From the IMG/VR virus record IMGVR_UViG_2877251553_000002: a stretch of DNA of 34,826 nt. One strand, given 5' to 3'. Below, one piece after another: positions 1-34,826 of the stretch. The notes below the pieces were generated by a model. The model was not told where the DNA came from, ran no database searches, and saw nothing but the letters and a program-made list of their open reading frames with translations. This stretch comes from a virus (taxonomy: Duplodnaviria > Heunggongvirae > Uroviricota > Caudoviricetes). How positions within the stretch are numbered: position 1 is the stretch's first letter; the number at the start of each line of letters is the position of its first letter. A program made the position numbers and the translations under genes.

Positions 1-381
1 ATGCAGAAAAATGTGAATCCCGGCAGGCGAAAAGGCTGCCCTAATTATCCTCCCGAATTTAAACAGCAGCTCGTTGCTGCCTCCTGTGAACCCGGGATAT
101 CCATCTCAAAACTTGCTCTTGAAAATGGCATTAACGCCAATCTGTTGTTCAAATGGCGACAACAATGGCGCGAGGGAAAGCTGCTATTACCTTCTTCAGA
201 GAGCCCCCAGCTACTTCCTGTGACTCTCGATGCAGCTGCCGAACAGCCAGAATCGCTCGCAGAGGATCCGGAAACCCTCAGTATCAGCTGTGAGGTAACG
301 TTCCGGCACGGGACGCTCCGCTTCAATGGCAATGTCAGCGAAAAGCTCCTGACTCTGCTGATACAGGAACTGAAGCGATGA
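1..381 (+). CDS. IS66-family accessory protein TnpA (orf1), possibly 5' partial at window edge
   Basis: ORF MQKNVNPGRRKGC... identical to orf1 of copies 2 and 3. Confidence 0.8.
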   Translation: MQKNVNPGRRKGCPNYPPEFKQQLVAASCEPGISISKLALENGINANLLFKWRQQWREGKLLLPSSESPQLLPVTLDAAAEQPESLAEDPETLSISCEVTFRHGTLRFNGNVSEKLLTLLIQELKR

Positions 382-725
382 TCCCGTTACCTTCCGGGAC
401 CAAAATTTGGCTGGTTGCCGGTATCACCGATATGAGAAATGGCTTCAACGGCCTGGCGGCAAAGGTGCAGACGACGCTGAAAGACGATCCGATGTCAGGT
501 CACGTTTTTATCTTCCGTGGGCGTAATGGCAGTCAGGTAAAGCTCCTCTGGTCTACCGGCGATGGACTGTGTCTGCTGACCAAACGGCTGGAGCGCGGCC
601 GCTTCGCCTGGCCGTCAGCCCGGGATGGCAAAGTGTTCCTCACACCGGCACAGCTGGCGATGCTCCTTGAAGGTATCGACTGGCGGCAGCCTAAAAGACT
701 GCTTACGTCCCTGACTATGTTGTAA
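378..725 (+). CDS. IS66-family TnpB (orf2)
   Basis: 115-aa ORF MIPLPSGTKIWLVAGITDMRNGF..., ATGA overlap with orf1, conserved IS66 orf2 family. Confidence 0.85.
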   Translation: MIPLPSGTKIWLVAGITDMRNGFNGLAAKVQTTLKDDPMSGHVFIFRGRNGSQVKLLWSTGDGLCLLTKRLERGRFAWPSARDGKVFLTPAQLAMLLEGIDWRQPKRLLTSLTML

Positions 726-773
726 GCCTCTTTATCCTGGTCGACGCTGAATGAGCCTGGTAATATACCCGGT

Positions 774-2311
774 ATGAGCAGCTCACTTCCTGACGATATC
801 AATGCACTGAAACGTCTCCTTGCCGAACAGGAGGCGCTGAACCGTGCCCTGCTGGAAAAGCTGAACGAGCGTGAACGCGAAATAGACCATCTGCAGGCAC
901 AGCTGGATAAGCTGCGCCGGATGAACTTCGGCAGCCGCTCCGAAAAAGTCTCCCGTCGTATCGCACAGATGGAAGCTGACCTGAAGGCACTTCAGAAAGA
1001 AAGTGATACCCTTACCGGTCGGGTTGACGACCCGGCCGTGCAGCGCCCGCTGCGTCAAACCCGCACCCGCAAACCGTTCCCGAATCACTCCCCCGCGATG
1101 AAAAACGGCTGCTGCCGGCAGCGTCATGCTGCCCGGAATGTGGAGGCTCACTGAGCTATCCGGGTGAGGATGCCGCCGAACAGCTGGAGTTGATGCGCAG
1201 CGTCTTCCGGGTTATCCGGACTGTACGTGAAAAGCATGCCTGTACTCAGTGCGATGCCATCGTGCAGGCCCCCGCGCCTTCACGGCCCATCGAGCGGGGT
1301 ATCGCAGGACCGGGGCTGCTGGCCCGCGTGCTGATCTCAAAGTATGCAGAGCACACCCCGCTGTACCGCCAGTATGAAATGTACGGACGCCAGGGCGTGG
1401 AGCTGAGTCGTTCACTGCTGTCGGGCTGGGTGGATGCATGCTGCCGGCTACTGTCACCGCTGGAAGAAGCGCTTCAGGACTATGTGCTGACTGACGGTAA
1501 GCTCCATGCTGATGACACGCCTGTCCCGGTGCTGTTGCCAGGCAATAAGAAAACGAAGACCGGGCGGTTATGGACCTACGTTCGTGACGACCGTAACGCC
1601 GGGTCAACGCTGGCGCCGGCGGTGTGGTTCGCTTACAGCCCGGACAGAAAAGGCATCCATCCGCAGACCCATCTTGCGGGGTTCAGTGGTGTACTGCAGG
1701 CGGATGCATACGCCGGGTTCAACGAGCTGTACCGGGATGGCCGGATAACGGAAGCCGCCTGTTGGGCTCACGCCCGCCGTAAAATCCACGATGTGCACGT
1801 TCGCACCCCGTCAGCCCTGACGGAGGAAGCGCTGAAACGGATCGGCGAACTGTACGCCATCGAGGCAGAGATAAGGGGAATGACGGCGGAGCAGCGCCTT
1901 GCCGAACGTCAGTTGAAAACGAAACCGCTGCTGAAATCCCTGGAAAGCTGGCTGCGTGAAAAGATGAAAACCCTGTCGCGACACTCAGAACTGGCGAAAG
2001 CGTTCGCATACGCCCTGAACCAGTGGCCGGCGCTGACGTACTATGCAGATGATGGCTGGGCTGAGGCGGACAATAACATCGCTGAAAATGCGTTGCGGAT
2101 GGTCAGTCTGGGCCGCAAAAACTACCTGTTCTTCGGTTCGGATCATGGAGGAGAGCGGGGAGCGCTGCTGTACAGCCTGATCGGGACGTGCAAACTGAAC
2201 GGAGTGGAGCCAGAAAGCTACCTCCGCTATGTCCTTGACGTCATAGCCGACTGGCCGATAAACCGGGTCGGCGAACTGCTCCCCTGGCGCGTAGCACTGC
2301 CGACTGAATAA
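774..2311 (+). pseudogene. IS66-family transposase TnpC (orf3), frameshifted
   Basis: ORFs 774-1154 and 1190-2311 together match the intact 512-aa TnpC of copy 3; C-tract at 1079-1081 has 3 C versus 4 C in copy 3. Confidence 0.8.
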
Positions 2312-2344
2312 CACATCCCCGTCAATACGGTTCTTGCTGCACGC

Positions 2345-2701
2345 TTACGATTTTGCCAGCATGACTACCGGGGACAGGCGGCCCAGTGAGTCGGGACCAG
2401 CATTCCAGATACGACCGTTCCATTCAAACGTGAACGGCTTCGCCTCCTGTTCTGCGCGCCATGCTTCAATTTCCTGACGTCTGGCCTCTCTGGCCGCTTC
2501 CTGCATTTCTGGTGTCACAGTGAATGGGGCTATCTCACCCCATTTGCCGCTTTGCAGTTCCTGCCAGATTTGCTGACCCGTCGGAGCGACATCATCAGCG
2601 GTGGCTGTGTAGGGGACTGCCTGGTCCCTGTCGTCAAAAAAAACGTCACAGTCTACTGCGCCACTTTCGGTATAACGGGGATTAATGATTTTTTTAGTTT
2701 C
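2345..2701 (-). CDS. tail fibre assembly (Tfa)-like protein, 3' end probably truncated by IS
   Basis: In-frame GTG at 2701 preceded by GAGGAA; product has no recalled match but sits in Tfa position after a fibre gene; stop codon 2345-2347 lies inside the IS66 terminal repeat. Confidence 0.4.
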   Translation of the reverse strand, partial: ETKKIINPRYTESGAVDCDVFFDDRDQAVPYTATADDVAPTGQQIWQELQSGKWGEIAPFTVTPEMQEAAREARRQEIEAWRAEQEAKPFTFEWNGRIWNAGPDSLGRLSPVVMLAKS

Positions 2702-2714
2702 CACGGTGCATTCC

Positions 2715-3068
2715 TCACGATGTGCGAATAAAAAGCCCGGGCATTGCGCCAGAGACATGTGCATCCGGCACCCCGGACAGGGCGCAATATGACCCCGGTA
2801 ATGAATGCTCTGAACATCCCGTAATGAAAAATTGTGGGGATGCTATATACGTTCCGGTGGGAGTACTGGGCACTGAAATCCCCACCGGTCCCAGTCGTGA
2901 GCCTCTGTATGACTGCCCCCTGACAAGTCTGATGACTTTATCACCGTCAGCTTCTCCCTGGTACGCAGCAATAATCAGCCCGCCAATGTCAGGGGCTCCC
3001 CATCTGTTGCGGACAGAGCTCGCCACGATTCTGTAAATAATATCTTCTGTGGTTATATTTATTTTCAC
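2715..3068 (-). CDS. hypothetical protein downstream of Stf-like fibre gene
   Basis: 117-aa ORF with 4-bp overlap to the upstream fibre gene; no recognisable family. Confidence 0.3.
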   Translation of the reverse strand: MKINITTEDIIYRIVASSVRNRWGAPDIGGLIIAAYQGEADGDKVIRLVRGQSYRGSRLGPVGISVPSTPTGTYIASPQFFITGCSEHSLPGSYCALSGVPDAHVSGAMPGLFIRTS

Positions 3069-4123
3069 CCAGTCAGTCTGGATATGGGCCAGTAGCAGTA
3101 GCGGGTGTGATAAATGGGGCCGTTAATGCCGTAAAAAGTAAGGGATTTGGCTCTGTACCGCGGTTCTGTTGTCTCAGGGCGTGCATCAGTCCACCGGATG
3201 CTGAGCACCCCTTCAAACCGTGTGTCGGGTATGATGCCCAGGCGGCCAGCAACGGAATACTCACCTGGCAGCGCATTCCTTACCCAGGCCAGGAAATCAC
3301 TCTTAGTGTCAAAACGGATAACATCTTCAGGCAGAAAAGCACACCCAAAGCCGAATGCGCCGGGTATCGCCAGACGGCCTTTTGTCCGGTCGTAAATGTC
3401 GCTCTGTGCTTCCATCGTGGCCGCACTTTTCAGCCCCAGATTATCCCGGGACTTCTGTTGTGCCTTTTCGCCTGCTGCTGCGATTTCTGACAGATGGTTA
3501 GCCATTTTCAGAGTGCCGGTAAGCGCAGCATCAATGTCATTTTTGGCCTGTTCTGCTGCGCGGGCATAACCTGCGGCATCCTGTGCGCTCTGTCCGGCTG
3601 CGGCTGCATTTGCTCCTGTGCTTGTCACATCTTCCGCAGTGGCCTTTCTGTCCTCAGCTGTGACGGTTGCATCCTGTCTGGCATTCTCCGCAAAACGTTG
3701 TGCATCATCACGGGCCGTTGCGGCTGCCGCCACATCCTGCGCCGTCTGCTGTGCGTTTCCGGCTGCGGCCCCGGCGCTCTGCTGCGCCTGCACCACCATT
3801 TCCTCAAAGCGTTTGACGACATCCGGTTTCAGGTCGCCCTCATCAGGAGCAATCAGAAAGTCATTCAGCGTGCCGGGCTTTGAGTCCTCATATACAGCAA
3901 TGTCGCCAACGTTGTACTCGTTGTGCCAGCCCGGTTTCAGATACACACCATATTTTCCAGTCCGCGCATGGAAACAGTATTCACCATCGTTTCCTGTCAT
4001 CACATCAGCAACAGTGTGCATCACCACTTCCGGGGTGTTTACCCGGGATTTCAGAATAATATGGTATCCGGACATGGGGATACCTGCGCCATCAGTCAGC
4101 GCACCTGATATCACTACAGACAT
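3065..4123 (-). CDS. lambdoid side tail fibre (Stf)-like protein, short form
   Basis: N-terminus with DIAVYEDSKPGTLNDFL motif resembling the prophage side-tail-fibre N-terminal domain, followed by Ala/Gln-rich low-complexity region; much shorter than typical Stf. Confidence 0.6.
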   Translation of the reverse strand: MSVVISGALTDGAGIPMSGYHIILKSRVNTPEVVMHTVADVMTGNDGEYCFHARTGKYGVYLKPGWHNEYNVGDIAVYEDSKPGTLNDFLIAPDEGDLKPDVVKRFEEMVVQAQQSAGAAAGNAQQTAQDVAAAATARDDAQRFAENARQDATVTAEDRKATAEDVTSTGANAAAAGQSAQDAAGYARAAEQAKNDIDAALTGTLKMANHLSEIAAAGEKAQQKSRDNLGLKSAATMEAQSDIYDRTKGRLAIPGAFGFGCAFLPEDVIRFDTKSDFLAWVRNALPGEYSVAGRLGIIPDTRFEGVLSIRWTDARPETTEPRYRAKSLTFYGINGPIYHTRYCYWPISRLTG

Positions 4124-4475
4124 AGTTTTTCTCGCGATAAATTAAATCAGGAAGAAATTTCCGGAGAGGCGGGCCATTCAATGGCGTTGTATGAGGTTTT
4201 ATCAGTGATGACACTGAAATCCATCGCCTGCAGCGATTTCGCGTAAATGCGGTACGCTTTCAGTTTTTCCCGGTCTTCGTCGCTGATTAGCCCCAGCAGC
4301 AGGTCTTCTTCCCATTCCCCTGTCCGGGCACTGACCTGAGCCAGAAGGGCATCACGCTCATCTTCCGCTTTGAGTCTGTAGTCAAAGACAAATTCATCAT
4401 TGCGGTAAAACCAGTAACCCGGCGCGGTAATGCGGCGGTTGGCGGTAATATCAGGAACTTGGTAATGACTCCAAC

Positions 4476-4979
4476 TTACTGATAGTGTTTTATGTTCAGA
4501 TAATGCCCGATGACCTTGTCATGCAGCTCCACCGATTTTGAGAACGACAGTGACTTCCGTCCCAGCCTTGCCAGATGTTGTCTCAGATTCAGATTATGTC
4601 GCTCAATGCGCTGAGTGTAACGCTTGCTGATAACGTGCAGCTTTCCCTTCAGGCGTGATTCATACAGCGGCCAGCCATCCGTCATCCATACCACGACCTC
4701 AAAGGCCGACAGCAGGCTCAGAAGACGCTCCAGTGTGGCCAGAGTGCGTTCACCGAAGACGTGCGCCACAACCGTCCTCCGTATCCTGTCATACGCGTAA
4801 AACAGCCAGCGCTGACGTGATTTAGCACCGACGTAGCCCCACTGTTCGTCCATTTCAGCGCAGACAATCACATCACTGCCCGGTTGTATGCGCGAGGTTA
4901 CCGACTGCGGCCTGAGTTTTTTAAGTGACGTAAAACCGTGTTGAGGCCAACGCCCATAATGCGTGCACTGGCGCGACAT
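4476..4979 (-). CDS. insB: IS1 InsB
   Basis: 167-aa [19 protein letters not shown]... characteristic of IS1. Confidence 0.85.
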
Positions 4980-5173
4980 CCGACGCCATTCATGGCCATA
5001 TCAATGATTTTCTGGTGCGTACCGGGCTGAGAGGCGGTGTAAGTGAACTGTAGTTGCCATGTTTTACGGCAATGAGAGCAGAGATAGCGCTGATGTCCGG
5101 CAGTGCTTTTGCCGTTACGCACCACGCCTTCAGTAGCGGAGCAGGAAGGACATCTGATGGAAATGGAAGCCAC
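4898..5173 (-). CDS. insA: IS1 InsA
   Basis: 91-aa [26 protein letters not shown]... characteristic of IS1. Confidence 0.85.
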
Positions 5174-5471
5174 GCAAGCACCTTAAAATCACCATCATAC
5201 ACTAAATCAGTAAGTTGGCAGCATTACCCAGGAACTTCAATAACACTGGCGTTACGGGGTTCAATGCCTGTCACATCCTTACCGACCCACACCACGCGAC
5301 CGTCTCCGGTGTAAGTTATTTTAATTGTGTCGCTGGCGAAATTCTTCAGCTCTTCATACCAGTTTTTTCCGTCTTCCGAAAAAAGCCAGGTGACATCATA
5401 TTGTTTTGTCAGCTGATATTGTTCCACGGTTTTCGGATTGCCCGCAGTAATATTTTTTAAATGCAACATTG

Positions 5472-6856
5472 TTAAACACTCGCCACGTTATACCAGGTGC
5501 CATTAATCAGTTTCTGAAGCGGGCGGTAATACACGCCGTTGACGTTATCCGCTGAGTCACGGCCGGTATCCGATATCGCTATCCCTGACAGCCCGTGTCC
5601 CGAAGGTGCGCGAAATCTCCACGAAACGGTGTTACTGCCGGGGCTGTAATACATTTCATGGCCATACCGTACATCCTGTACCCCCTCTGTTCGATATTTA
5701 TAGCGGGCATCGAAGTTTCCGTAATTTAACGGAATTACCTGTCCGTTTACGGCGAACGTGATGCTGTTATCTGTATTCCTCTGGCTGAAAAAATGCCAGC
5801 CTGAATCATCGCCAAGCTCTGCAACAACAGACCTGGATGGATTACCCCACAAATAAAACGCTGCATTTTTCGTGGAGTTGTTGGCGCTGGATAACGTGAA
5901 TTTTCTGGCAGTTCCGGCCTGAATATTCTTAAAAGCAATAGCCACTCCATTCTGAAAGCGGAATACACGCTGACTATTAGCATAAACATCCAGAATACCG
6001 TCTCCATTCTGTTTAAATCCGGTGTCATTATCACCAAGAACAATTGAATTCCCCCCAGGGCGTTCTGAACGCCGATACCCAGCGCACCATTGACCTGCGA
6101 ACCACCGCCAACAGACACTTTATGCGACATGGATATTTCACCCGTCCGCAAATTAATGGTGAACGGGCGCAGGGGACCAATATCGCCATTTTCCCCCTGA
6201 CCTTCACTGGTGGGAATAAGGTGCAGGCACTCTTCCGAACGACGAAAAATCAGGCCAAAAGCTTCGTTGAAAATCCTCAGCGCATTAACACCACGGATTT
6301 TCAGCTCTCCGGTTATTTTATCGCCTTCCCGATGAACATAGCGTTGATCTGACTGCTCTTTACTGTAAACCTGAAGATTATCCCGTGCCGTCCCTTTATT
6401 CTGAAGGTCTGACAGATTGTTCTTCTGCCGCAGGAATATCCTTTTCGGATCCTCAAGAAGATTTACCCAGCCCGCACTGTCGGAGCCTTCAGGATCGGTC
6501 AGGTTATCGTCTGTGGTATTCAGCCAGACCGCTGTTGTTGCGACTCCGGCGAGAATGGCTCCTTTTGCATATCCACCAATGGCCCCCGCAAAACCGGCAT
6601 TATACGTGTACAAACCGCCAGCTTGGGCGAACCGTATTGCTGCGGTAATATCGTACATCAGACCGTTAAAATCCTTGCCGTGTGGCGGTATACCTCCCGC
6701 TGAGACCGCTGTCATGGTCACCGGAGGAAAACCTGAATCATACGCAGCATTACCGCTCTCTCTGGTCTGCTGTGTCGCCTTGTCCGGGATACGGTTTTTA
6801 TCTCCGGTACTCGCAAAGGGGACCGCCAGCTGGCGGGGTTTATCACTGGCCTTCAT
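5472..6856 (-). pseudogene. tail fibre protein with P2 gpH-like C-terminal domain, frameshifted at a C6/G6 tract
   Basis: ORFs 5747-6856 and 5472-5945 overlap in different frames; C-terminal ORF ([11 protein letters not shown]...[11 protein letters not shown]...[11 protein letters not shown]) resembles the P2 gpH C-terminus; frames rejoin if the tract at 6058-6063 had one more base. Confidence 0.7.
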
Positions 6857-7259
6857 TACGGGACTCCTTTAAAACTACTGAAACATAAACACCCGGCGGG
6901 GACGGCAGTGCACCCGACGACTGGATAATCGCCAGTTCTGCCAACGAGAGCGCGGACTCAAAGATGTAACTCATCCTCAGCCCACCATTATTCAGAACAT
7001 AAGCCCGCCGTTTTTTTCCGAACATAAATCTCAGCATCCGGTTAATATCCGGAACGGAACAGTCAGTAATGTTCGACATGGCTTTCATCAGTATCAGCCG
7101 CCGGTATACAGCATCAGACAGGTCAACAGTCCGGGTATCCGATTTTCCGTTGTAAAACGGTGCCTGATTAGACTGGCCCCCTGAATCTCCAGACAACCAG
7201 TATCACTTAAATAAGTGATAGTCTTAATACTAGTTTTTAGACTAGTCATTGGAGTACAG

Positions 7260-7625
7260 ATGATTGATGTCTTAGGGCCGGAGAAACGCAGACGGCGTAC
7301 CACACAGGAAAAGATCGCAATTGTTCAGCAGAGCTTTGAACCGGGGATGACGGTCTCCCTAGTTGCCCGGCAACATGGTGTAGCAGCCAGCCAGTTATTT
7401 CTCTGGCGTAAGCAATACCAGGAAGGAAGTCTTACTGCTGTGGCCGCCGGAGAACAGGTTGTTCCTGCCTCTGAACTTGCTGCCGCCATGAAGCAGATTA
7501 AAGAACTCCAGCGCCTGCTCGGCAAGAAAACGATGGAAAATGAACTCCTCAAAGAAGCCGTTGAATATGGACGGGCAAAAAAGTGGATAGCGCACGCGCC
7601 CTTATTGCCCGGGGATGGGGAGTAA
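7260..7625 (+). CDS. insC: IS2 InsC (OrfA)
   Basis: [32 protein letters not shown]... characteristic of IS2. Confidence 0.85.
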
Positions 7626-8488
7626 GCTTAGTCAGCCGTTGTCTCCGGATGTCGCGTGCGCAGTTGCACGTCATTCTCAGACGAACCGATGACTGGATGG
7701 ATGGCCGCCGCAGTCGTCACACTGATGATACGGATGTGCTTCTCCGTATACACCATGTTATCGGAGAGCTGCCCACGTATGGTTATCGTCGGGTATGGGC
7801 GCTGCTTCGCAGACAGGCAGAACTTGATGGTATGCCTGCGATCAATGCCAAACGTGTTTACCGGATCATGCGCCAGAATGCGCTGTTGCTTGAGCGAAAA
7901 CCTGCTGTACCGCCATCGAAACGGGCACATACAGGCAGAGTGGCCGTGAAAGAAAGCAATCAGCGATGGTGCTCTGACGGGTTCGAGTTCTGCTGTGATA
8001 ACGGAGAGAGACTGCGTGTCACGTTCGCGCTGGACTGCTGTGATCGTGAGGCACTGCACTGGGCGGTGACTACCGGCGGCTTCAACAGTGAAACAGTACA
8101 GGACGTCATGCTGGGAGCGGTGGAACGCCGCTTCGGCAACGATCTTCCGTCGTCTCCAGTGGAGTGGCTGACGGATAATGGTTCATGCTACCGGGCTAAT
8201 GAAACACGCCAGTTCGCCCGGATGTTGGGACTTGAACCGAAGAACACGGCGGTGCGGAGTCCGGAGAGTAACGGAATAGCAGAGAGCTTCGTGAAAACGA
8301 TAAAGCGTGACTACATCAGTATCATGCCCAAACCAGACGGGTTAACGGCAGCAAAGAACCTTGCAGAGGCGTTCGAGCATTATAACGAATGGCATCCGCA
8401 TAGTGCGCTGGGTTATCGCTCGCCACGGGAATATCTGCGGCAGCGGGCTTGTAATGGGTTAAGTGATAACAGATGTCTGGAAATATAG
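7583..8488 (+). CDS. insD: IS2 InsD (OrfB transposase)
   Basis: 301-aa [33 protein letters not shown]... characteristic of IS2. Confidence 0.85.
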
Positions 8489-8784
8489 GGGCAAATCCAC
8501 TGATTAAACGGACAGGGATCATCCATTACCGGGGTGTCCATCCTGGACTCGCTGAAGCCCAGGTAATTAAAATCGTCCTTTACCGTCAGCCGGCGACTGA
8601 CACCCACAATCTTTCCCCAGACATCAAGACCATACTTTTCTGCGGTATCGATGTTCCAGATAAGACCATAAAAATCACTGATAAAACTGTCGGGGGAAAG
8701 CGCTGCGTTAAAGCTGTTAATGAGGGCATTGAGTCGGGGCTGGCAGCATACTGCGCAAGCACAGTGGCAGCCACATTCTGCACG

Positions 8785-10022
8785 TTATGCCTCCTGGAGT
8801 TTCACACTGATATCCGACACATCCAGAACCGGAATCTCATCTATCCCGAAAGTGACAGCCGTTGTCCATGACGAACCGTCACGGCTCACAGTAAGGCCCA
8901 GAATATCAATATGTTCCGGATCGGTTTTGTAAATGCCGGCATAGTAGCGCCCGGCAGAGACAACAGAGGCAACCCTTGCCCGCAGACCACCATCTGTACC
9001 ATTAAATGCGTCCAGCACGGATTGCTGTACCTGTCGGGTAATATCTGAAGGCAGGTAGTCACTTTTTTTCAGCGTCACACTGACATGCAGACTGACGGGT
9101 TTGAGTGTCTGCCAGCTGATTACGTATTCAGGATACGGCGGATCGTACTCCTTATCTGCAACAGTGAACGTTGTGTTGCCATTCATATCAATACCCGGCG
9201 GAGCCTTACGCCAGATGGCCGCCGCGATATCTGCCGGGCTGCCGCCGTACACGCCAACATAAAGCGAACCGGGTGTTAATGGATACTGACTGACTCCGGC
9301 TTTTTGTTCTGTTTTTTTCGGATTATGGGGGACGTAAACATCCACCACGTTTTCTACCGTGGAGAGTATTTCACCCCGGATGGCTTCCAGAATATTCCGG
9401 GCATTACGGGCAACTGAATTACGTCGGCGGTTTTCAAAGTCCGCACGGGTTTCCTCATCGCTGCCCGGCACACCGGCACGGGCGTTAGTGACACCTGACC
9501 AGCCAGGTATTGCCTTATAAATTTTATTCAGCGTCCCCACAGGACAGCCGACGGGGCCGGTGGACAAATTCAGAAATACCGCATCAACCTGCCCTGATGC
9601 GCCGATAGTGACGTCTGACTGACATACTTATAACCGGCCTCATCCTGCCCCATACTGCCCGCCGGGATCAGCGTGCCAACCAGCCCGGTACAGGTCGCTG
9701 TTACTGTCGTACCTGTGGCCCCACGGCGCTCCAGGAAATAAATCCTGCCTATTGCATCCTGAAAGCGACCACTGGAAAAGTCAGGGTTGATCTGGTTAAC
9801 GATATACAGCAACTGATCGTTTTTATCCGCAATAATGGCGCTTTCGCTGGATGCAAGTTGTCCCTGCGGACTGCTCAGACTGGTACTCATGGCCCCGCCC
9901 AGCGCCGCCGAAAAATCAGCAAGCCTGCCGCTCAGAATATCCGCTTCATCCGGCACATTCAGCCCGCTATCCGAAATCTGTACAGCGGGCACTGCGGTAG
10001 AAAAAGATTTATTTTCACTCAT
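8785..10022 (-). pseudogene. baseplate J-like protein, frameshifted
   Basis: ORFs 9570-10022 and 8785-9567 are adjacent in different frames and together resemble a ~410-aa baseplate J-family protein; frame change near a GTCAGTCAG repeat around 9600. Confidence 0.6.
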
Positions 10023-10375
10023 AGCAGTACCGTAAAAATGTCATTATTGGTATCTGTAATACGCAGCACACCTGTTACTGTCCGGGTTTGATCAGCTGTG
10101 ACCTGGCAGACAGCGGCGCTCACGGTCGGCAGTTTAAGTGCTTCCTGTTGCAGAGTGGCATTCACCAGTTGTGTGCCGGGCCAGTGTCCGAGGATGCGTG
10201 GCCAGTAAGGTATGCCAGCCGTTGAGTCGTACCAGCACTCCCCCAGAAAAGTACTGCACGCACACGCCACATCCTGAGCTACCGCATGGGGATTATCAGT
10301 AATGGCAAGATTTCCGGTATCATCAAGCAGGATATCCCATGTCCCGGTGTCAAGAAGAAGTGATCGTGACTGCAT
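10019..10375 (-). CDS. small baseplate protein (gpW position)
   Basis: 118-aa ORF between V-like and J-like genes; assignment by position only. Confidence 0.4.
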   Translation of the reverse strand: MQSRSLLLDTGTWDILLDDTGNLAITDNPHAVAQDVACACSTFLGECWYDSTAGIPYWPRILGHWPGTQLVNATLQQEALKLPTVSAAVCQVTADQTRTVTGVLRITDTNNDIFTVLL

Positions 10376-11063
10376 GTTTTCTCCTGTTTACCGGGATCCC
10401 TGCGTGGTTGAGCCGCCGGACTCAACGCCGCCGTGAACGTGGTTTCCAAAATCAATACCCCGATGTTCGAACCGCCGGAAAGCCTGGACTGCCCGGTAAC
10501 GTCAAGCCCCTTACTGACGGCGGTATCGCCGTTCAGCGCAATTTGTGGTGAGTTAACGGTGAAGCTTTTCGGCGCATTAATCACCCCCTCAGGCGCGGAT
10601 ATCTCCACTTTCCAGGGAGATACAATCCGTATCTGGTTGTCATCAAATACCACAAACTGGACGGGATCACCGTTGAGCACGCCACCCAGCCAGATGGCAT
10701 CAGCATAATTATGGGTACGCTTTGATCCCGGCATCGCAGCCTGACGCGTGGCTTTTACCGCACTGATATCCCGATCGCAGATGGCAAGAAAACCGATATC
10801 CCCCACATGTGGCGGGATAATCACCGCATTACCGCCCCCTGTAGTCGCCATACGGGAATGTTATAAATCACCTCATGTTCAACCGGGGAACCGTCTGCTG
10901 CAACGCCCATTACCATCGGTCGGGCCTCAATAAATCCCTCTTCCACGGCTACCACCCGTCCCAGAGTGATAAACGCATGACGTCCGAGAAACTGCCGCAG
11001 CATAAAGTCCTGTGCATTGATTTCGCTGTTCACGTCTGTCGGGTTACTGAGTGGTTGTGCCAT
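10279..11063 (-). pseudogene. baseplate assembly protein V-like (spike), frameshifted
   Basis: ORFs 10821-11063 and 10279-10851 overlap in different frames; position and size fit gpV/Mu gp45-type proteins. Confidence 0.45.
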
Positions 11064-11913
11064 TTTCTTCAGCCCTCATCATGGTACAGTTGGAACTCCA
11101 CGGACCGCCCACGGTTCGCGAAGTAATGGTGTGTATCACCCCTGTGATCGTATAATCGCCCGTCATATCAGGCAGTGACGATTCCAGATGCGCTGGCCTG
11201 CCAGTAAAGAGATCGGGGCAGAATATCGTGGTGGCGCTGAGTCCGGTCATGGTGTAAACCGGATAGCCAGTCAGTCCGTGATCCGGCGAAATCAGTACCG
11301 GCGGAATATTCCGGTTCTGCCCTTTCGGCCAGATGGTGACTTTCTCCACATTCCCCAGATCAATGTTAATATCGGCGGCTGAAGCGACATCCAGCATTTG
11401 TTGTACAACATTACCGGAAAAATGCGGGTCAGACAGACTGCGGCTGACCCCCTGGTTTTCAAATCCAAGCCCGACAGTTGACGCCAGCGCACGGATAATA
11501 TCTGCAACCGCAACATCGCCCTTTGCGCTGAAATCTGCCGCCGGCTGATTACGCAGATTAAAATGAATCTGTCCTGTCAGAATGAGCGGAATATCCGGCG
11601 CCTGGTTGTAGTCGGCGTATGCATCAGTAATATCACCTTCAAAAATAAGCCGCCCGTCGGCCCACAGCCGCATTTTATTTGCGGTACTCTGCTCCTGTCG
11701 CCACACACCGCGCCAGCTTAAATTCGTCATATGCGCCGGTGACATTCCCCAGATATACAGCGTGATTTGTGTACCAGCCACCCCTCCATATACGGCAATA
11801 CTGGCAAAACAGCTTGCGTCGGTAATGGTCAGCATATTGCCCTGGCCATTACCAAACGTTCGTCCGTCTGAAAGAGTGAACTCCACCGTTATTTTACGTT
11901 GTCTGTAGCTCAT
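11044..11913 (-). CDS. phage baseplate/tail protein (hub-like position)
   Basis: 289-aa ORF in tail-gene operon with overlapping start/stop to neighbours. Confidence 0.4.
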
Positions 11914-12212
11914 ATCAGTTCCTCAGGTAACAGCCAGTAGAGCCGGTACCGGGATCCGAGCCCCCGCCAGTCAGGGTCACTATTCCCCTCCGTGTCGGTA
12001 AAAAACAGATCCCCCTGAAACGGCAGGTATCCGTACCGGACAATCCGGTTATTATTCAGACACAGCACGCCATACAGGCACGGTTCACCATTAACAATGA
12101 TATCGATATACATCCCCGTAGTACGCTGATTCAGGCGAATGGTGCAGACCTGAGCGCCCAGTGTCACCGTAAACTGCTGGGCTTTAACGGGAGATAAAAC
12201 AATTTCCAGCAT
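11910..12212 (-). CDS. phage tail protein, hypothetical
   Basis: 100-aa ORF translationally coupled within tail operon. Confidence 0.35.
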
Positions 12213-12922
12213 CAGGTGATCCCCCTGTTCGTGGCGCTTCGTCTGTCAGCGTCTGACGGTTGTGTCTCCGACGCCGTAACTGGCTGCGTTTTAACCGATG
12301 CGGCCCCTTTTGCTTTATCGTTGTCCGTGGGAGACGACTTATCCGTACTTCCCACTGACACCTCTCCTGTATTCATTACGGTCTGAAATACCGCAGTAAC
12401 CGTCAGTAAGGTCGGACCATTATTACTTCGCATTCGGTAGTCATATTTCACAAGGTCGCAGGATGTCCATGTCTTGTCCGGCGTCTCAATATCGTAGAGT
12501 CCTGCCGTGGTACGCATCCTTTCAAGCGTTTCCAGCACATTCGTCCGCGAGGTGGTGGAAAAATTTGTCAGGTTCGGGACGGATCCGGAAAAGGCCGTCC
12601 ACCCCTCTACAGTGAAAGTCACATGCAGTTCCGGCGATCTCTGGATTTTATTAAAGGTGGTATAAGCCCCCTGCTCCACGGGGACGGTGGAAACAGAAGC
12701 CTCCGCGCCCACCTCAACGACAACAAAAGAATCCGGGGAGAAAGGTTTGCCACCCTTCTGATGGGCACCTGCCGGATCATTCCGTGCGTAATAAATACCG
12801 AATGACGGTGCCAGTACACTATTAATGAGTCCCAGGACACAGCCGCCACGAACTGCACTCAGTACGTTACTTTCACTGAGCGAAAAGTTATTCAGGGAAA
12901 TATTATCGAAAGAAAAACTCAT
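12212..12922 (-). CDS. phage tail protein, hypothetical
   Basis: 236-aa ORF immediately downstream of the tape measure gene. Confidence 0.35.
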
Positions 12923-14938
12923 CCTGTTACCCCGCTGGAATAAACCGACACAAGCGCCGAATTCGTGATACGCCGACGTGCGTCATCGGTAATACCCTTC
13001 ACATTGTCCGACGTTGTGGTGACATTCAGTGTCCCGATATGCGTGGTTTCCGTTACGGTGGACTGCGATACAGGCGCAGGATGGAGCGACCGTATGGCCA
13101 TTGCCGCACCCGGATAAGGCAGGTTCGCCAGCACCCGCGGAATATAGTTGCGGGTCTCCTCCGGAGCAGCAGCCAGTCCCTTACGCTGAACATTTCCCTC
13201 TCCACAGTTATATGCCGCCAGAGCCTTAGCCAGATCGCCATGAAAAAAACGTATCAGGCCACCAAGTTTTCTCGCGGCGGCATCAGCGGCTTTTTCGGGA
13301 TCAAAGGCATCGTTCCCCCTCAGACCAAATTCACTGGCCGTCTTCGGCATGAACTGAAACAGTCCCATCGCACCAGCAGGTGAGACGGCAAACTGATTAC
13401 CACGGGATTCGGTGATCGCAACGCTGCGCAGCAGTCCGGGCGGCAGGTTATATTTTTCCTCCAGTTGAGACAGTTTCGGTTGCAGCCAGCCTAACAGGGC
13501 TTCCCCGGTCTTCGTCGGTCGCTGGCGGTTTTGCATGGCATTACCGAGTTTTTCCTGCGTCGCACGCATACCCTGTAGCCAGGATTCACCGAAGGCTGCT
13601 TCCCTCCCGGTTGCCTGAGAAGCCTGAGTATCCAGCATGCCCTGCTGCCATACTGTGGGTGATTGTGCCCGGGTGATGTTGCCAGGCTTTTCTCCGGCAT
13701 CCAGTTTTGTCTGATACGTCTCCATCTCTTTCTTATTGAAAAAGAAAGTCCCGTCTGAAGCCCAGAAAAAACCATGTGAATCCAGCCAGTCCTTATTTTC
13801 CCTGCCAACAATGGATGTCAGTAATCCGTCAACAACCGGGTAAAGCGCCGTTATCGCAAAAAGAAGGCCTCCGGGGCCACTGAGGGCTTTTGTCAGCCCC
13901 CGCACCCATGACGCCACTTTCAGCCCGATCAGCGTAATAATGACATTCTGCCAGCCCCCAGTTCTCCGGCAGCCTTATTCGCTAGGGAGGCCACTGACTC
14001 AACGTCATTCAGAAATGTGGTGATAAACCTGTTCACTTCCTCCGGATGTTGCTGCATCCAGTCACCGAGTGTCTCCAGCCAGTGGCTGAGCTTCAGCGCG
14101 TACGGCATCAACGCGGTGCTAATCGTCATCCCGATGCCGGACCAGGTCTGATCGAGCTCAACAAGCTCTTTTCGTAGCTTACGGGCCAGCGCTGTACGCC
14201 CCGGCGTAACCTGCGAACGGGAAGTAAATTCGTCCACATCTTTCAGCGCATGACCGGAGCCAAGAAACTGCTGTCCGGCATAACTGAAGCCCAGCGCGTT
14301 GCCGTAGGCAGTTTGTTCGGACTTTGTCAGTCGCGGAAAAATAACCGCCAGCTTGCGCATGATGGCTTCAGTGCTGTCAGTATTTAAATCAACACTAATG
14401 CCCGCCCTGGCTGCAACCTGAAACAAATCCTGTAACACAGGATCAAAGGACCTTCCGGCTCTGAAGGCCGCTTTTGCATTTGCAAGCCGGGAAAATGCCC
14501 CAGACATTTCCCCTTCATCAACATTATTTGCCCGCGCAGCCCGTAACCATCCGTCCAGATTTCTGGCCTTCATGCCAAAAGCATCGGATTCCACGGACAG
14601 ACGGTTCAGATCACGGGCAAAACCTGTTACCAGGTTCTTCAGCCCCCCAGCGTCAGACTGACACCCGCAAGAGCCAGAATCTCGCTACGGATTCCTGAAA
14701 AAAAACGGGACGCCCGTTTCCCGGCATCTTCCATTCGACGGGCCGTTTTATCAGCATCTTTTCCGGTTTTTTCCAGTGATTCACTGGTTTTCTTCTGTCC
14801 CTGACTGAATGTGTCAGCGACACCTTCCATCACCGTCGTGAGCCGGTTAAGGGCAGCATGTACTGCCTGTTCCCCGGCAGTAAAGTCCCTGTCATCAATC
14901 CCGAGGGACAGAACAAGCTCATCAAGTACCTGCGCCAT
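12919..14938 (-). pseudogene. tail tape measure protein with C-terminal lytic transglycosylase (SLT) domain, split over three frames
   Basis: ORFs 14639-14938, 13929-14594 and 12919-13917 are consecutive in different frames; the last has an SLT-like signature (ESRGNQFAVSPAGAMGLFQFMP...AAYNCGEGNV). Confidence 0.55.
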
Positions 14939-15290
14939 TTCTGTTCTCCTGTATCACCTGTTCGTTATGGGCATCCACATGAATTATTTCCAGCAGATCC
15001 CATAAGTCCTGCACACCAAGGACAGAATCCAGTTCAGCTTTTGAAGCCTTACCGGAGGAGATAACGGTCGCAATGGTACGGGGAACATTAACGTAATCCA
15101 CCACCCCGAACGGTCTGTCGGGGTCGAGATAACGCGGGGGATATCTAGCTGACGACGGTAGCGAAAAAATCCACATGCAGCTTAAAGACCTCCGCACGCA
15201 GATTAAGACGGGTAATGATTTCTTCAATATCCTCTTCAACAAGCGGTCTCCGGATGCTGCGTTTTTTCGGATCGGGAACAAACTGCACAC
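14922..15290 (-). CDS. ORF overlapping the 3' end of the tail chaperone gene in the +1 frame (possible frameshift extension)
   Basis: Protein-like acidic sequence (...PFGVVDYVNVPRTIATVISSGKASKAELDSVLGVQDLWDLLEIIH...) spanning the chaperone-tape measure gap; no convincing own start signal. Confidence 0.3.
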   Translation of the reverse strand: MCSLFPIRKNAASGDRLLKRILKKSLPVLICVRRSLSCMWIFSLPSSARYPPRYLDPDRPFGVVDYVNVPRTIATVISSGKASKAELDSVLGVQDLWDLLEIIHVDAHNEQVIQENRNGAGT

Positions 15291-15549
15291 AGTCCATCAT
15301 TTCATCCATCAACGGACGCGCCTCATCAGGCGGAATTTTCGATAATGCTTTCAGCCCTTCAAGGGCAAGCGCAGCCATCCCCAGACTACGAACATCATCC
15401 GGTAACTCCACGCCACCACGCCCCATTGCCATAATGGCACGCATCGCCCACCATTCCGCCTGTGAGGCAGACATTTCGGTAAGATGAAATACCTTGCCCT
15501 TATCCCGTCCCTGACCTTCAATAGTGATAAATTTCTCTTTACGGGCCAT
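15145..15549 (-). CDS. tail assembly chaperone
   Basis: 134-aa helical acidic protein between tube and tape measure genes, the conserved chaperone position; ends with a T-rich heptamer (GAT TTT TTC). Confidence 0.5.
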   Translation of the reverse strand: MARKEKFITIEGQGRDKGKVFHLTEMSASQAEWWAMRAIMAMGRGGVELPDDVRSLGMAALALEGLKALSKIPPDEARPLMDEMMDCVQFVPDPKKRSIRRPLVEEDIEEIITRLNLRAEVFKLHVDFFATVVS

Positions 15550-15887
15550 CAGTTAAAAACCTCCGGAGTAATGGTTTCCCACTCAATAACCGCCTGCCCT
15601 GGCTGCAACGTACGAGCTGCATCAGGCAGCGCTTTCCATTGTTTGAGTACGCCATTCACGCAGGTATATTTACGGCCAATCGCCGGAAGCAGGACGACAG
15701 CGTTACAACGGAATACAGCCCGACTGGCCCGGATGTGGTTGACCAGGTATCAAAAATATCCCGGCTGGGGGAATCCGGCATGATATGAAACGTCTGGATA
15801 ATGTTGCTGTACACAAATCCCGCGGACAGTTTGGTAATGCTGCCAACTTACTGATTTAGTGTATGATGGTGATTTTAAGGTGCTTGC

Positions 15888-16163
15888 GTGGCTTCCATTT
15901 CCATCAGATGTCCTTCCTGCTCCGCTACTGAAGGCGTGGTGCGTAACGGCAAAAGCACTGCCGGACATCAGCGCTATCTCTGCTCTCATTGCCGTAAAAC
16001 ATGGCAACTACAGTTCACTTACACCGCCTCTCAGCCCGGTACGCACCAGAAAATCATTGATATGGCCATGAATGGCGTCGGATGTCGCGCCAGTGCACGC
16101 ATTATGGGCGTTGACCTCAACACGGTTTTCCGTCACTTAAAAAACTCAGGCCGCAGTCGGTAA
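15888..16163 (+). CDS. insA: IS1 InsA
   Basis: 91-aa ORF, two substitutions relative to the copy at 4898-5173. Confidence 0.85.
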
Positions 16164-16189
16164 CCTCGCGCATACAACCGGGCAGTGAT

Positions 16190-16585
16190 GTGATTGTCTG
16201 CGCTGAAATGGACGAACAGTGGGGCTACGTCGGTGCTAAATCACGTCAGCGCTGGCTGTTTTACGCGTATGACAGGATACGGAGGACGGTTGTGGCGCAC
16301 GTCTTCGGTGAACGCACTCTGGCCACACTGGAGCGTCTTCTGAGCCTGCTGTCGGCCTTTGAGGTCGTGGTATGGATGACGGATGGCTGGCCGCTGTATG
16401 AATCACGCCTGAAGGGAAAGCTGCACGTTATCAGCAAGCGTTACACTCAGCGCATTGAGCGACATAATCTGAATCTGAGACAACATCTGGCAAGGCTGGG
16501 ACGGAAGTCACTGTCGTTCTCAAAATCGGTGGAGCTGCATGACAAGGTCATCGGGCATTATCTGAACATAAAACACTATCAGTAA
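16190..16585 (+). CDS. insB: IS1 InsB (N-terminal region carries a TGG to TGA change relative to copy 1)
   Basis: 131-aa ORF matching the C-terminal 131 aa of InsB; the upstream in-frame segment has a stop at codon 11. Confidence 0.7.
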
Positions 16586-17949
16586 GTTGGAGTCATTACC
16601 GACAGTTTACCGTCAATACCGCGGGCAGTTTCCGCCAGTACCAGTGGATCGGTGCCATAAACGTTATCTGTTGCAAATCCCTGAAGTCGTACGCCGGAGG
16701 GATACAGATTATTCACTGTCAGCGTGATAATGGCATCCGCCGCAGTGATGGTGTTGTTGTTACCCGACATTTACTGGACCTCCGTGGATGCAATAACAAG
16801 TTTCTGGATACTACCGCCGTCACAGTACCAGAGCGTACAGGACGGACTGCTACGGGTTGCCCGCAAAGAGGGAAGCATATCGCCGATATACAGGTAATAG
16901 CCGGTGGCAAACAACGTTGAAGAAACATCTGCCTCCACAACATTGTTAATCTGTTTCTTCTGCGCCTCCGTCAGTGTCACCCCTTCACGGATCCCTCCCC
17001 AGCGTTTGTACTGCTGGATAACGTCACTCATTGACGCTGCAACCAGCGCCCGCCCTTCATTGTTGTAGGGGACCGTCTGGTTTGACTTGAATAATGCGAT
17101 CACCGCCCCTGCAAACTGGCATTCAGCCAGATTTGCCCGCAGAAACTGTCCAGCCATTTAAAATCACCGGTAATAGTGCCATCCGCCCAGTAATCTTCCA
17201 CCACACTGTTTTCCGCATATTTTCCGTAGAAATTGTAACCTGCGGCGATCAGCGCATCATAATCGCTGCCACTGGTAACATCAGCGGCCAGCCCCTCATA
17301 CTCGCGGAACTTGAATGATACACGCCCCTCTGGTCGGATAAAATCAAGGCACGCTGCATACCCCAGTACCGCTGCAGCCCGGTTACCATCAGTCGCGAAA
17401 ACAGGTACAACAGAGCTGTAGTTATTGACAGCAATTATCTGGTAAGCGATGTGTTCAGTACTGCCTTTTACTCTGGCGTTGCCGCTGGTTGTCCATGCCA
17501 CATAAAAGTAACGCTTGCCCTGCCCGTTTGCCCATGCAGAAAACGCCAGGTGTTGCTCGTCAGTGACCTCAGATACCGTGGAAAAACCCGCCCATTGCTG
17601 GGAAGCGGCCTTAATGGCTGCCATTGTGTCAGGGACATCAGATACAGGCGCGCCCCGGGATATCACCGCACCGGTGTTACTGGTCATCTTCAGGAGTTCT
17701 GCTGCCGATCCACTGCCGAACGTTATCGTGGTACTCCCGGGTTTCGCCCCGGCGACAGTAATGACAAAAGCATTCTGTGTGGTATCGAATACCACTGTAG
17801 CCACTGCTGCGGTCAGCGCTGTCTGTAGTGCCGTTGCAGCAGCGGCGAAGCTGGCGACACCGTTAAAATTCACTTCAATGCTGACGCTTTTCCCGTTAAT
17901 ACTCAGCATCAGCGTAAGCGTGCAGCAAGAACCGTATTGACGGGATGTG

Positions 17950-19487
17950 TTATTCAGTCGGCAGTGCTACGCGCCAGGGGAGCAGTTCGCCGACCCGGTT
18001 TATCGGCCAGTCGGCTATGACGTCAAGTACATAGCGGAGGTAGCTTTCTGGCTCCACTCCGTTCAGTTTGCACGTCCCGATCAGGCTGTACAGCAGCGCT
18101 CCCCGCTCTCCTCCATGATCCGAACCGAAGAACAGGTAGTTTTTGCGGCCCAGACTGACCATCCGCAACGCATTTTCAGCGATGTTATTGTCCGCCTCAG
18201 CCCAGCCATCATCTGCATAGTACGTCAGCGCCGGCCACTGGTTCAGGGCGTATGCGAACGCTTTCGCCAGTTCTGAGTGTCGCGACAGGGTTTTCATCTT
18301 TTCACGCAGCCAGCTTTCCAGGGATTTCAGCAGCGGTTTCGTTTTCAACTGACGTTCGGCAAGGCGCTGCTCCGCCGTCATTCCCCTTATCTCTGCCTCG
18401 ATGGCGTACAGTTCGCCGATCCGTTTCAGCGCTTCCTCCGTCAGGGCTGACGGGGTGCGAACGTGCACATCGTGGATTTTACGGCGGGCGTGAGCCCAAC
18501 AGGCGGCTTCCGTTATCCGGCCATCCCGGTACAGCTCGTTGAACCCGGCGTATGCATCCGCCTGCAGTACACCACTGAACCCCGCAAGATGGGTCTGCGG
18601 ATGGATGCCTTTTCTGTCCGGGCTGTAAGCGAACCACACCGCCGGCGCCAGCGTTGACCCGGCGTTACGGTCGTCACGAACGTAGGTCCATAACCGCCCG
18701 GTCTTCGTTTTCTTATTGCCTGGCAACAGCACCGGGACAGGCGTGTCATCGCATGGAGCTTACCGTCAGTCAGCACATAGTCCTGAAGCGCTTCTTCCAG
18801 CGGTGACAGTAGCCGGCAGCATGCATCCACCCAGCCCGACAGCAGTGAACGACTCAGCTCCACGCCCTGGCGGCCGTACATTTCAGACTGGCGGTACAGC
18901 GGGGTGTGCTCTGCATACTTTGAGATCAGCACGCGGGCCAGCAGCCCCGGTCCTGCGATACCCCGCTCGATGGGCCGTGAAGGCGCGGGGGCCTGCACGA
19001 TGGCATTGCACTGAGTACAGGCATGCTTTTCACGTACAGTCCGGATAACCCGGAAGACGCTGCGCATCAACTCCAGCTGTTCGGCGGCATCCTCACCCGG
19101 ATAGCTCAGTGAGCCTCCACATTCCGGGCAGCATGACGCTGCCGGCAGCAGCCGTTTTTCATCGCGGGGGAGTGATTCGGGGAACGGTTTGCGGGTGCGG
19201 GTTTGACGCAGCGGGCGCTGCACGGCCGGGTCGTCAACCCGACCGGTAAGGGTATCACTTTCTTTCTGAAGTGCCTTCAGGTCAGCTTCCATCTGTGCGA
19301 TACGACGGGAGACTTTTTCGGAGCGGCTGCCGAAGTTCATCCGGCGCAGCTTATCCAGCTGTGCCTGCAGATGGTCTATTTCGCGTTCACGCTCGTTCAG
19401 CTTTTCCAGCAGGGCACGGTTCAGCGCCTCCTGTTCGGCAAGGAGACGTTTCAGTGCATTGATATCGTCAGGAAGTGAGCTGCTCAT
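17950..19487 (-). pseudogene. IS66-family transposase TnpC, frameshifted
   Basis: ORFs 18513-19487 and 17950-18732 match the intact copy-3 TnpC; 1-bp deletion near 18750 (GTCATCGCATGG versus GTCATCAGCATGG). Confidence 0.8.
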
Positions 19488-19535
19488 ACCGGGTATATTA
19501 CCAGGCTCATTCAGCGTCGACCAGGATAAAGAGGC

Positions 19536-19883
19536 TTACAACATAGTCAGGGACGTAAGCAGTCTTTTAGGCTGCCGCCAGTCGATACCTTCAAGGAGCA
19601 TCGCCAGCTGTGCCGGTGTGAGGAACACTTTGCCATCCCGGGCTGACGGCCAGGCGAAGCGGCCGCGCTCCAGCCGTTTGGTCAGCAGACACAGTCCATC
19701 GCCGGTAGACCAGAGGAGCTTTACCTGACTGCCATTACGCCCACGGAAGATAAAAACGTGACCTGACATCGGAGCGTCTTTCAGCGTCGTCTGCACCTTT
19801 GCCGCCAGGCCGTTGAAGCCATTTCTCATATCGGTGATACCGGCAACCAGCCAAATTTTGGTCCCGGAAGGTAACGGGATCAT
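19536..19883 (-). CDS. IS66-family TnpB (orf2)
   Basis: 115-aa ORF, one substitution relative to the other copies. Confidence 0.85.
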   Translation of the reverse strand: MIPLPSGTKIWLVAGITDMRNGFNGLAAKVQTTLKDAPMSGHVFIFRGRNGSQVKLLWSTGDGLCLLTKRLERGRFAWPSARDGKVFLTPAQLAMLLEGIDWRQPKRLLTSLTML

Positions 19884-20281
19884 CGCTTCAGTTCCTGTAT
19901 CAGCAGAGTCAGGAGCTTTTCGCTGACATTGCCATTGAAGCGGAGCGTCCCGTGCCGGAACGTTACCTCACAGCTGATACTGAGGGTTTCCGGATCCTCT
20001 GCGAGCGATTCTGGCTGTTCGGCAGCTGCATCGAGAGTCACAGGAAGTAGCTGGGGGCTCTCTGAAGAAGGTAATAGCAGCTTTCCCTCGCGCCATTGTT
20101 GTCGCCATTTGAACAACAGATTGGCGTTAATGCCATTTTCAAGAGCAAGTTTTGAGATGGATATCCCGGGTTCACAGGAGGCAGCAACGAGCTGCTGTTT
20201 AAATTCGGGAGGATAATTAGGGCAGCCTTTTCGCCTGCCGGGATTCACATTTTTCTGCATATCTGACACTTTGGTTCCCAC
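19880..20281 (-). CDS. IS66-family TnpA (orf1)
   Basis: 133-aa ORF MGTKVSDMQKNV...; true start may be the internal Met at 20260. Confidence 0.8.
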   Translation of the reverse strand: MGTKVSDMQKNVNPGRRKGCPNYPPEFKQQLVAASCEPGISISKLALENGINANLLFKWRQQWREGKLLLPSSESPQLLPVTLDAAAEQPESLAEDPETLSISCEVTFRHGTLRFNGNVSEKLLTLLIQELKR

Positions 20282-20681
20282 TACTTATTTGGTGGACACC
20301 ACTTTGTCTAATTCGTCAGATTCTGACCAGACGGTTCAGGCTGTACGCTTACGCATCAGCGTGCCGGAAAGTTTTTGTAGCTGTTCAACAGTCGCGCCCT
20401 TAAACGAACCGCTACGTAACCAGGCCGCCGATGGGGCAGGACTGAAACGGGAAAACAACAATTGCCCCGGCGTCCTGGTGGCATTTTTGAAGCCCTGGAA
20501 ATAAAGCTGAGCGCGTGCGTACTCATCGGATAATGCACCAAAATACGCGGCCACATCATCCGGAGAGGAAAACGGAACCACAGTGCCGACCGGAAGTAAC
20601 GGATTACTGGTCAACAGCAGGCCGTTAAGATCGACGGCATTACCCGCCACAGCCAGCACACCGGGATTTATCTGTACATCT

Positions 20682-21107
20682 TTACTGAGTGGAATTGGCA
20701 TTATCAGCCTCCGTTGTCCGGGTGATCACGTTGTCAAAAAACATCAGGGAAGTTGTGACCACAGGGTTAATCTGCATCTGAATATCAAGCGTCCAGCGCG
20801 GTTCATACTGTTGCTGACCGTTGGGGAATGTGGTGTTAAAGGGCTCTGAGCAATACAGCGGGGAAATCAGCCCACCGCCCTGCCGGAAAAGCCGTACGGA
20901 AAATTCAGACCGGAAAAGCGTTGCCAGCACCTGAGCGTTATCTGCCGCGTGAGGGCCGTAGAAATCAAGCTGGCAACGCCATTTTGTGGTACGGGTGATA
21001 TGCTGAGAGCCCTCACCAGCCTGCGCTGGCGCAGAATATGCCACTACCGCAGTGGATAATCCGGTAACATCAATGCCCGTCATGGTGATGAAATTCCCCT
21101 GAGGCAT
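20682..21107 (-). CDS. hypothetical phage structural protein upstream of sheath
   Basis: 141-aa ORF; start of sheath gene overlaps its 3' end. Confidence 0.35.
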   Translation of the reverse strand: MPQGNFITMTGIDVTGLSTAVVAYSAPAQAGEGSQHITRTTKWRCQLDFYGPHAADNAQVLATLFRSEFSVRLFRQGGGLISPLYCSEPFNTTFPNGQQQYEPRWTLDIQMQINPVVTTSLMFFDNVITRTTEADNANSTQ

Positions 21108-24585: not shown

Positions 24586-25886
<1,301 letters not shown>

Positions 25887-26224: not shown

Positions 26225-26352
26225 GGTGATGACTCCAACTTACTGATAGTGTTTTATGTTCAGATAATGCCCGATGACCTTGTCATGCAGCTCCACCGAT
26301 TTTGAGAACGACAGTGACTTCCGTCCCAGCCTTGCCAGATGTTGTCTCAGAG
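26225..26352 (-). mobile_element. IS1 terminal fragment (~128 bp)
   Basis: GGTGATGACTCCAACTTACTGATAGTGTTTTATGTTCAGATAATGCCCGATGAC... matches the IS1 end at 4461-4590, then is cut by the ISEc8-like terminus at 26353. Confidence 0.8.
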
Positions 26353-26388
26353 TAAGCGTGCAGCAAGAACCGTATTGACGGGGATGTG

Positions 26389-27927: not shown

Positions 27928-27975
27928 ACCGGGTATATTACCAGGCTCATTCAGCGTCGACCAGGATAAAGAGGC

Positions 27976-33042: not shown

Positions 33043-34826
<1,784 letters not shown>

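Follow-up and report, generated by a model that had tools for sequence, protein, structure and literature searches.

The window, a 34,826-nucleotide stretch of DNA recorded as the Caudoviricetes sequence IMGVR_UViG_2877251553_000002, contains a defective, myovirus-like prophage tail module whose sheath and tube are akin to those of Pseudomonas phage E217. Four genes of this module, for Tfa, a putative baseplate wedge protein, the tail tube and the tail sheath, are each interrupted by one insertion sequence (IS) between direct repeats; the interrupted genes are all on the minus strand. IS sequence makes up approximately 39% of the window. Positions 1-15469 are 100% identical, gap-free, to GenBank CP026825.1, which from its accession range appears to be a member of the PacBio historical Shigella series; CP026832, in the same range, is S. 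dysenteriae 14 ATCC 49346 and was PacBio-sequenced. When the region was compared by megablast with 5,426 complete E. coli genomes, a near-identical, uninterrupted tail module with adjoining ipaH was identified in a handful of them, e.g. the enteroinvasive E. coli (EIEC) strain CFSAN029787; in related genomes this effector gene lies beside the tail module. Four EIEC copies (L001-L004) were used for comparison, with L001 as the intact reference prophage. Related Shigella loci were fetched by exact look-up of the open reading frames (ORFs) that result from IS-gene fusion, and come from at least 13 other assemblies. In the phage collection, the module has no nucleotide-level relative except for its tail-fibre/Tfa cassette.

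Tfa (4147..5469, minus strand) belongs to the Caudo_TAP family, with a Pfam E-value of 1e-25 for the intact homologue, and is interrupted after nt 232 by a first copy of IS1 (IS1a). IS1a is 768 bp long (4461-5228, minus strand) and has a 9-bp target-site duplication (TSD), CAGGAACTT, at 4452-4460 and 5229-5237. Its minus-strand insA and insB frames are at 4898-5173 (91 aa) and 4476-4979 (167 aa). Removal of IS1a restores a complete Tfa ORF of 546 nt and 181 aa. The second copy, IS1b, lies in the tail tube gene; the two are 100% identical and inverted relative to each other. Their ends (GGTAATGACTCC.../GGTAATGCTGCC...) carry the GGTAATG terminal inverted repeat of IS1, which is imperfect, and both have the IS1 length. 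Homologous copies are named IS1 family by the Prokaryotic Genome Annotation Pipeline (PGAP), and the Pfam families Zn_ribbon_InsA and DDE_Tnp_IS1 match the same element in relatives. IS1 usually duplicates 9 bp of its target and less often 8 bp; the two copies have 9 and 8 bp, respectively, and each target is single-copy in intact relatives.

The second interrupted gene (6843..8783, minus strand) follows the baseplate J gene and precedes the tail fibre. It is broken after nt 279 (codon 93) by IS2, which occupies 7169-8499 on the plus strand and has the 5-bp TSD CTGAT at 7164-7168 and 8500-8504. The element has the 1331-bp length of IS2 and its ends, TAGACTGG...GCAAATCCA, with the right terminus ...AATCCA. 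Two intact ORFs at 7215-7625 and 7583-8488 correspond to orfA and orfB, whose overlap serves programmed frameshifting. In relatives, the same IS2 has been annotated with a 409-aa product that contains HTH_Tnp_1 and rve domains, and copies elsewhere in EIEC genomes carry the PGAP name 'IS3-like element IS2 family transposase'. IS2 makes a 5-bp TSD; CTGAT stands on both sides of it here and only once at the empty site of L001-L004. The interrupted gene matches Pfam DUF2612 (E=1.7e-65), and its nearest solved structure is PDB 7kh1, 'baseplate wedge protein gp17' (E=3.7e-8). The label of 'I-like baseplate gene' that it was first given does not hold, since the Pfam scan returned DUF2612 only and no match to the P2 gpI family. 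It appears from these matches to be a DUF2612/baseplate-wedge gene, with a likeness to gpI that is positional only.

The window has a single IS2 at this site. A second, partial IS2 arrangement is present at the DUF2612 site in L015, L016 and L018 (~5630-8300); its end coordinates were checked in L015 and L018, and L016 was judged by gene calls. Three E. coli hits (H6, H8 and H9) were suspected of sharing the IS2 insertion, and were ruled out because their annotated IS2 copies sit elsewhere.

The tail tube gene (15549..16770, minus strand) directly follows the sheath gene and is interrupted after nt 162 (codon 54) by IS1b, a 768-bp copy at 15833-16600 on the plus strand, with insA and insB frames at 15888-16163 and 16190-16585. 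The TSD GACAGTTT at 15825-15832 and 16601-16608 is strictly 8 bp, and a 9-bp reading is impossible. The protein matches Pfam E217_Gp32 (E=1.8e-17; 63.8 bits against a cutoff of 27), a family that the Pfam text names 'tail fiber protein gp32', and it has no direct sequence match in the PDB. We take it to be the tube protein on the basis of its position, its size and the reported structure of E217.

The tail sheath gene (16771..20701, minus strand) matches the DUF3383 family along its full length (residues 6-491 of 494, E=2e-140), and resembles the 'Sheath protein gp31' of E217 (PDB 8env/8fvg, E ~1e-16). It is interrupted after nt 341 by an IS66-family element with the genes tnpA-tnpB-tnpC, at 17914-20352 on the minus strand (2439 bp). 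The TSD is the 8-bp GCATCAGC at 17906-17913 and 20353-20360; 8 bp is the duplication made by the IS66 family, and the repeat flanks both sides here and is single-copy at the empty site. An exact 24-mer across this target, TTCCCGTTAATACTCAGCATCAGC, has no match in GTDB species-representative genomes. The termini are GTAAGCGT...ACGCTTAC (GTAAGCG...CGCTTAC), and in relatives the 126-, 115- and 512-aa products of the element match Pfam HTH_Tnp_1, TnpB_IS66 and DDE_Tnp_IS66. The earlier note on this DNA, which was made from the sequence alone, called the element ISEc8-like. It does belong to the IS66 family, but it is closest to elements that PGAP names ISEc22 (99.7% identity over 2440 bp) and not specifically to ISEc8. 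At 2439 bp it is two bases shorter than the 2441-bp copies of relatives. The first loss, G4->G3 at ~17942, is private and probably a sequencing error. The second is the deletion of an A at ~18750, outside any homopolymer, which splits tnpC into ORFs of 324 and 260 aa, so that no intact transposase is encoded. This deletion is common to the window and L006, L009, L013 and L014, and is probably real as it is shared with four other assemblies. The sheath element is therefore probably non-autonomous on its own.

Two other ISEc22-like copies lie in the window, at 1-2348 and 26352-28792, and tnpC is intact in the latter. Neither has a TSD (examined in the window and at 13122-15561 in L019), the flanks being GCAAAATC/AGTTAAGT and GTCTCAGA/GTTTTTAT, and next to the right-hand copy is a 127-bp fragment of an IS1 end (26225-26351). 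The missing TSDs and the abutting fragment suggest that both copies were involved in rearrangement or nested insertion. This agrees with the contrast drawn in the earlier note between the four tail insertions and rearranged IS copies. In L011 (CP026840.1), the segment 10349-20366 is inverted between the sheath ISEc22-like copy and an inverted copy at the window's left end. This inversion is a recombination of the sheath copy with the left inverted copy, and the sheath N-terminus now precedes the tail-fibre genes.

All coordinates and repeats of the four insertions proved exact when the sequence was read directly. The chance of exact repeats abutting the IS termini is 4^-9, 4^-5, 4^-8 and 4^-8 for the Tfa, wedge, tube and sheath sites, respectively. 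For an in-silico excision, each IS was deleted together with one repeat copy and the product was aligned to L001. The excised region aligns as a single colinear high-scoring segment pair of 12,092 columns at 99.58% identity, and Tfa with the tail-fibre cassette falls in a lower-identity block (~95%). The 40-mers that describe the empty IS2, IS1b and IS66 sites are found verbatim in all four EIEC copies. That of the Tfa site is verbatim in L001 and L004, and the site is also empty in the Shigella relative L011. These verbatim empty sites indicate that the insertions are precise and that each target was single-copy in the ancestral state. The earlier note's description of the four insertions as simple transpositions stands, given the complete IS ends, the single-copy targets in intact relatives and TSD lengths that are typical of the families.

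The further claim, that the host frame is restored exactly in all four genes, is only partly upheld. Tfa regains its full ORF, and translation crosses the tube and sheath junctions correctly, in agreement with the reference protein there, but the restored DUF2612, tube and sheath ORFs are incomplete because of small indels relative to the intact module. The DUF2612 frame fails by about codon 16, before the IS2 junction is reached, so that colinearity there is seen in the DNA only; its first stop is at aa 66 of 202, following a 1-bp deletion at ~8736. In the restored tube gene the deletion at ~15731 leads to a stop at aa 113 of 149, and in the restored sheath gene that at ~17106 leads to one at aa 385 of 495.

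Compared with the intact module, the window has 12 small indels, which disrupt further genes as well, among them those for the spike, the tape measure and the neck terminator. Ten affect one base within a G/C run 4-7 bases long, nine of them by loss and one by gain. Of the other two, one shortens GGG to GG in the tube gene (~15731) and one removes a CTGA repeat unit from the baseplate J gene (~9615). Single-base G/C-homopolymer deletions are located at 8736, 10458, 10835, 13955, 14643, 15136, 17106, 17942, 21156, 21434 and 21844. The gene with the 4-bp CTGA deletion is the baseplate J/gp47 gene (8785..10022, minus strand).

When each indel site was tabulated across 15 related loci, two patterns appeared. 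All Shigella loci that span the tube and baseplate J deletions have them, and none of the EIEC copies L001-L004 does. These two are real frameshifts, independent of any IS. The DUF2612 deletion (G5->G4) is not found in L015-L018, which are the window's closest relatives, and the sheath deletion (C5->C4) occurs only in the window and L012. Other G/C-run deletions are scattered against relatedness, with each assembly having its own private set of -1 changes, and at the ten window-indel sites that they cover, L005, L007 and L008 are free of variable deletions. The scattered homopolymer deletions, including those in DUF2612 and the sheath gene, are most likely PacBio consensus errors. Real pseudogenisation as the source of most 1-bp deletions was considered and rejected, as their distribution across assemblies ignores relatedness.

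None of the four IS-gene junctions occurs in the 5,426 complete E. coli genomes. The sheath::IS66 and tube::IS1b junctions are each present in nine of the nine Shigella loci that cover the site, with the inverted L011 keeping one of the two sheath junctions. The DUF2612::IS2 junctions are present in all six full-length loci (L011 and L015-L019), and one of them is found on the short contig L020. Tfa::IS1a occupies its site in five full-length loci and is missing from L011, which makes this the only polymorphic site. The Tfa gene of L011 has instead been struck by another IS1 isoform (15026-15793, 91% identical), which lies 120 bp from the window site and is flanked by an 8-bp duplication of its own. 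The fusion ORFs of the sheath, tube and DUF2612 genes are indexed in 153, 51 and 50 public-assembly blocks, respectively. Carriers differ from one another by 5-17 substitutions over 12-20 kb aligned, and the EIEC copies, which have other IS at other sites, diverge by 0.4-0.5%. Since the four sites are empty in the EIEC copies, all four insertions post-date the split from them. The shared junctions place the sheath, tube and wedge insertions in the ancestor common to the carriers examined; that in Tfa is younger. The insertions had been described as relatively recent. This holds in that all four followed the EIEC split, but the IS2, tube IS1 and sheath IS66 insertions are in every Shigella locus covering their sites, and 'recent' holds only relative to the arrival of the prophage.

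It is very likely that the locus reflects ordinary IS-driven decay of an ipaH-linked Shigella prophage by four conventional transpositions, and the analysis yielded no evidence that contradicts simple transposition. Resident IS would have transposed separately into the Tfa, DUF2612 wedge, tube and sheath genes. Each event would have truncated the host gene and duplicated a staggered-cut target, of 9 and 8 bp with the IS1 copies, 5 bp with IS2 and 8 bp with the IS66-family element. The matching repeats would be retained because no later IS-IS recombination disturbed these four copies in this strain. The insertions may have gathered in DNA that was already, or was soon to be, non-functional; this neutrality, like the order of the inactivating events, is something we infer. 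Three points weigh against this account. In the tube gene the IS insertion and the frameshift, both present in every carrier examined, may have arisen in either order; the Shigella species and serotype of the source are deduced from where its accession falls and from its lack of a counterpart among the E. coli genomes; and the reading of the mosaic deletions as assembly errors derives from their distribution across assemblies. An origin of the insertions themselves, or of their perfect repeats, in long-read assembly, through collapsed or misplaced IS, can practically be dismissed. The source accession does belong to a PacBio series and has evident homopolymer consensus errors, but such errors cannot make insertions of 0.8-2.4 kb with TSDs, and the same junctions recur in at least ten independent assemblies, including GCA_900618175 and many contigs of <5 kb.

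A density of four IS in a tail module of ~13.5 kb is above the genome average implied by ~200-300 IS copies per ~4.7-Mb chromosome, and could mean that the hits were adaptive, with inactivation of tail and lysis functions selected because it locks in the ipaH effector and blocks induction. Tfa has taken two independent hits, each in a different lineage, at a different site and from a different IS1 isoform, and the sheath gene of the EIEC O121 copy holds IS600, IS421 and a nested IS1/IS66 at other sites. However, neutral accumulation in dispensable DNA also predicts an excess, a single sheath or tube knockout already ends tail assembly so that more hits gain nothing, and other genes of the module decay via small deletions too; adaptive hits are therefore unlikely. 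It seems quite improbable to us that IS in Shigella and EIEC prefer the tail module of ipaH prophages, or are selected for there, so that the effector prophage is immobilised. Homologous recombination could have imported the IS-bearing alleles from an already disrupted copy of the same prophage family, and related EIEC genomes, with up to 6-8 places that match the module, contain possible donors. Import would merely shift the transpositions to the donor copy, though, and a second copy with these junctions was not seen in any locus examined. Among carriers, the sequence on either side of each IS is evenly ~99.9% identical and a mosaic boundary is not apparent, and we give this route very little credence.

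A lambda-type integrase gene is split between 25795-26238 (minus strand) and 34238-34826 (plus strand), and its N-terminal (arm-binding/SAM-like) and catalytic halves abut separate, mutually inverted IS911-like copies that are 8 kb apart (~24639-25886 and ~32971-34237). This arrangement suggests an IS insertion followed by inversion between the two IS911-like copies. An IS3-family element to the right of the four insertions is not IS600, since BLAST gave no match between it and the IS600 copy annotated in L003. A second tail-fibre set lies between Tfa and the left ISEc22-like copy (2349-4146), consisting of a phage_tail_N protein at 3065-4123 and DUF4376-like fragments, with a 4-bp indel at ~3070 relative to the EIEC copies. 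Beyond this set, relatives have ipaH, and one EIEC genome has a pinE invertase nearby. To the left of the window, as seen at 15595-20246 in L019, the prophage remnant adjoins zitB-pnuC-nadA-cpoB. Both zitB and nadA are called split or shortened in L019, and these splits may be more homopolymer errors or real Shigella pseudogenes.

Beyond annotation the locus matters little, as it is one locus of the known IS expansion that erodes Shigella prophages. Its four junctions are usable lineage markers, three being present in every relative examined and one being polymorphic. The many G/C-homopolymer deletions of the public assembly mimic pseudogenes, and frameshift-based calls cannot be trusted here without read support.

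The tail belongs to the same Pfam families as that of Pseudomonas phage E217 (sheath gp31, tube gp32), and its sheath has sequence similarity to the E217 sheath of known structure. E217 is only a distant relative (E ~1e-16 to 1e-17), and the module described here is part of a non-functional Enterobacteriaceae prophage that in relatives is adjacent to ipaH. The inserted elements have the same lengths (768, 1331 and ~2441 bp), termini, TSDs and gene content as IS1, IS2 and ISEc22/ISEc8 of E. coli and Shigella. The IS66-family copy in the sheath gene differs in its frameshifted tnpC, and its nearest relatives are ISEc22 by PGAP. Shigella species have a median of ~190-290 IS copies, and most of their conserved pseudogenes are IS-interrupted, some with other inactivating mutations too (Hawkey et al. 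2020, PMC7373316). The window has the same IS types (IS1, IS2 and ISEc8/ISEc22-type IS66, with IS911-like copies nearby), the same high load and the same IS-interrupted genes, some of which likewise have additional inactivating mutations. It does not differ in kind from the pseudogenisation and prophage decay seen across Shigella genomes, being one locus of a genome-wide process. The breakage of Shigella prophages by IS is already well documented, and this locus is an ordinary example of it.

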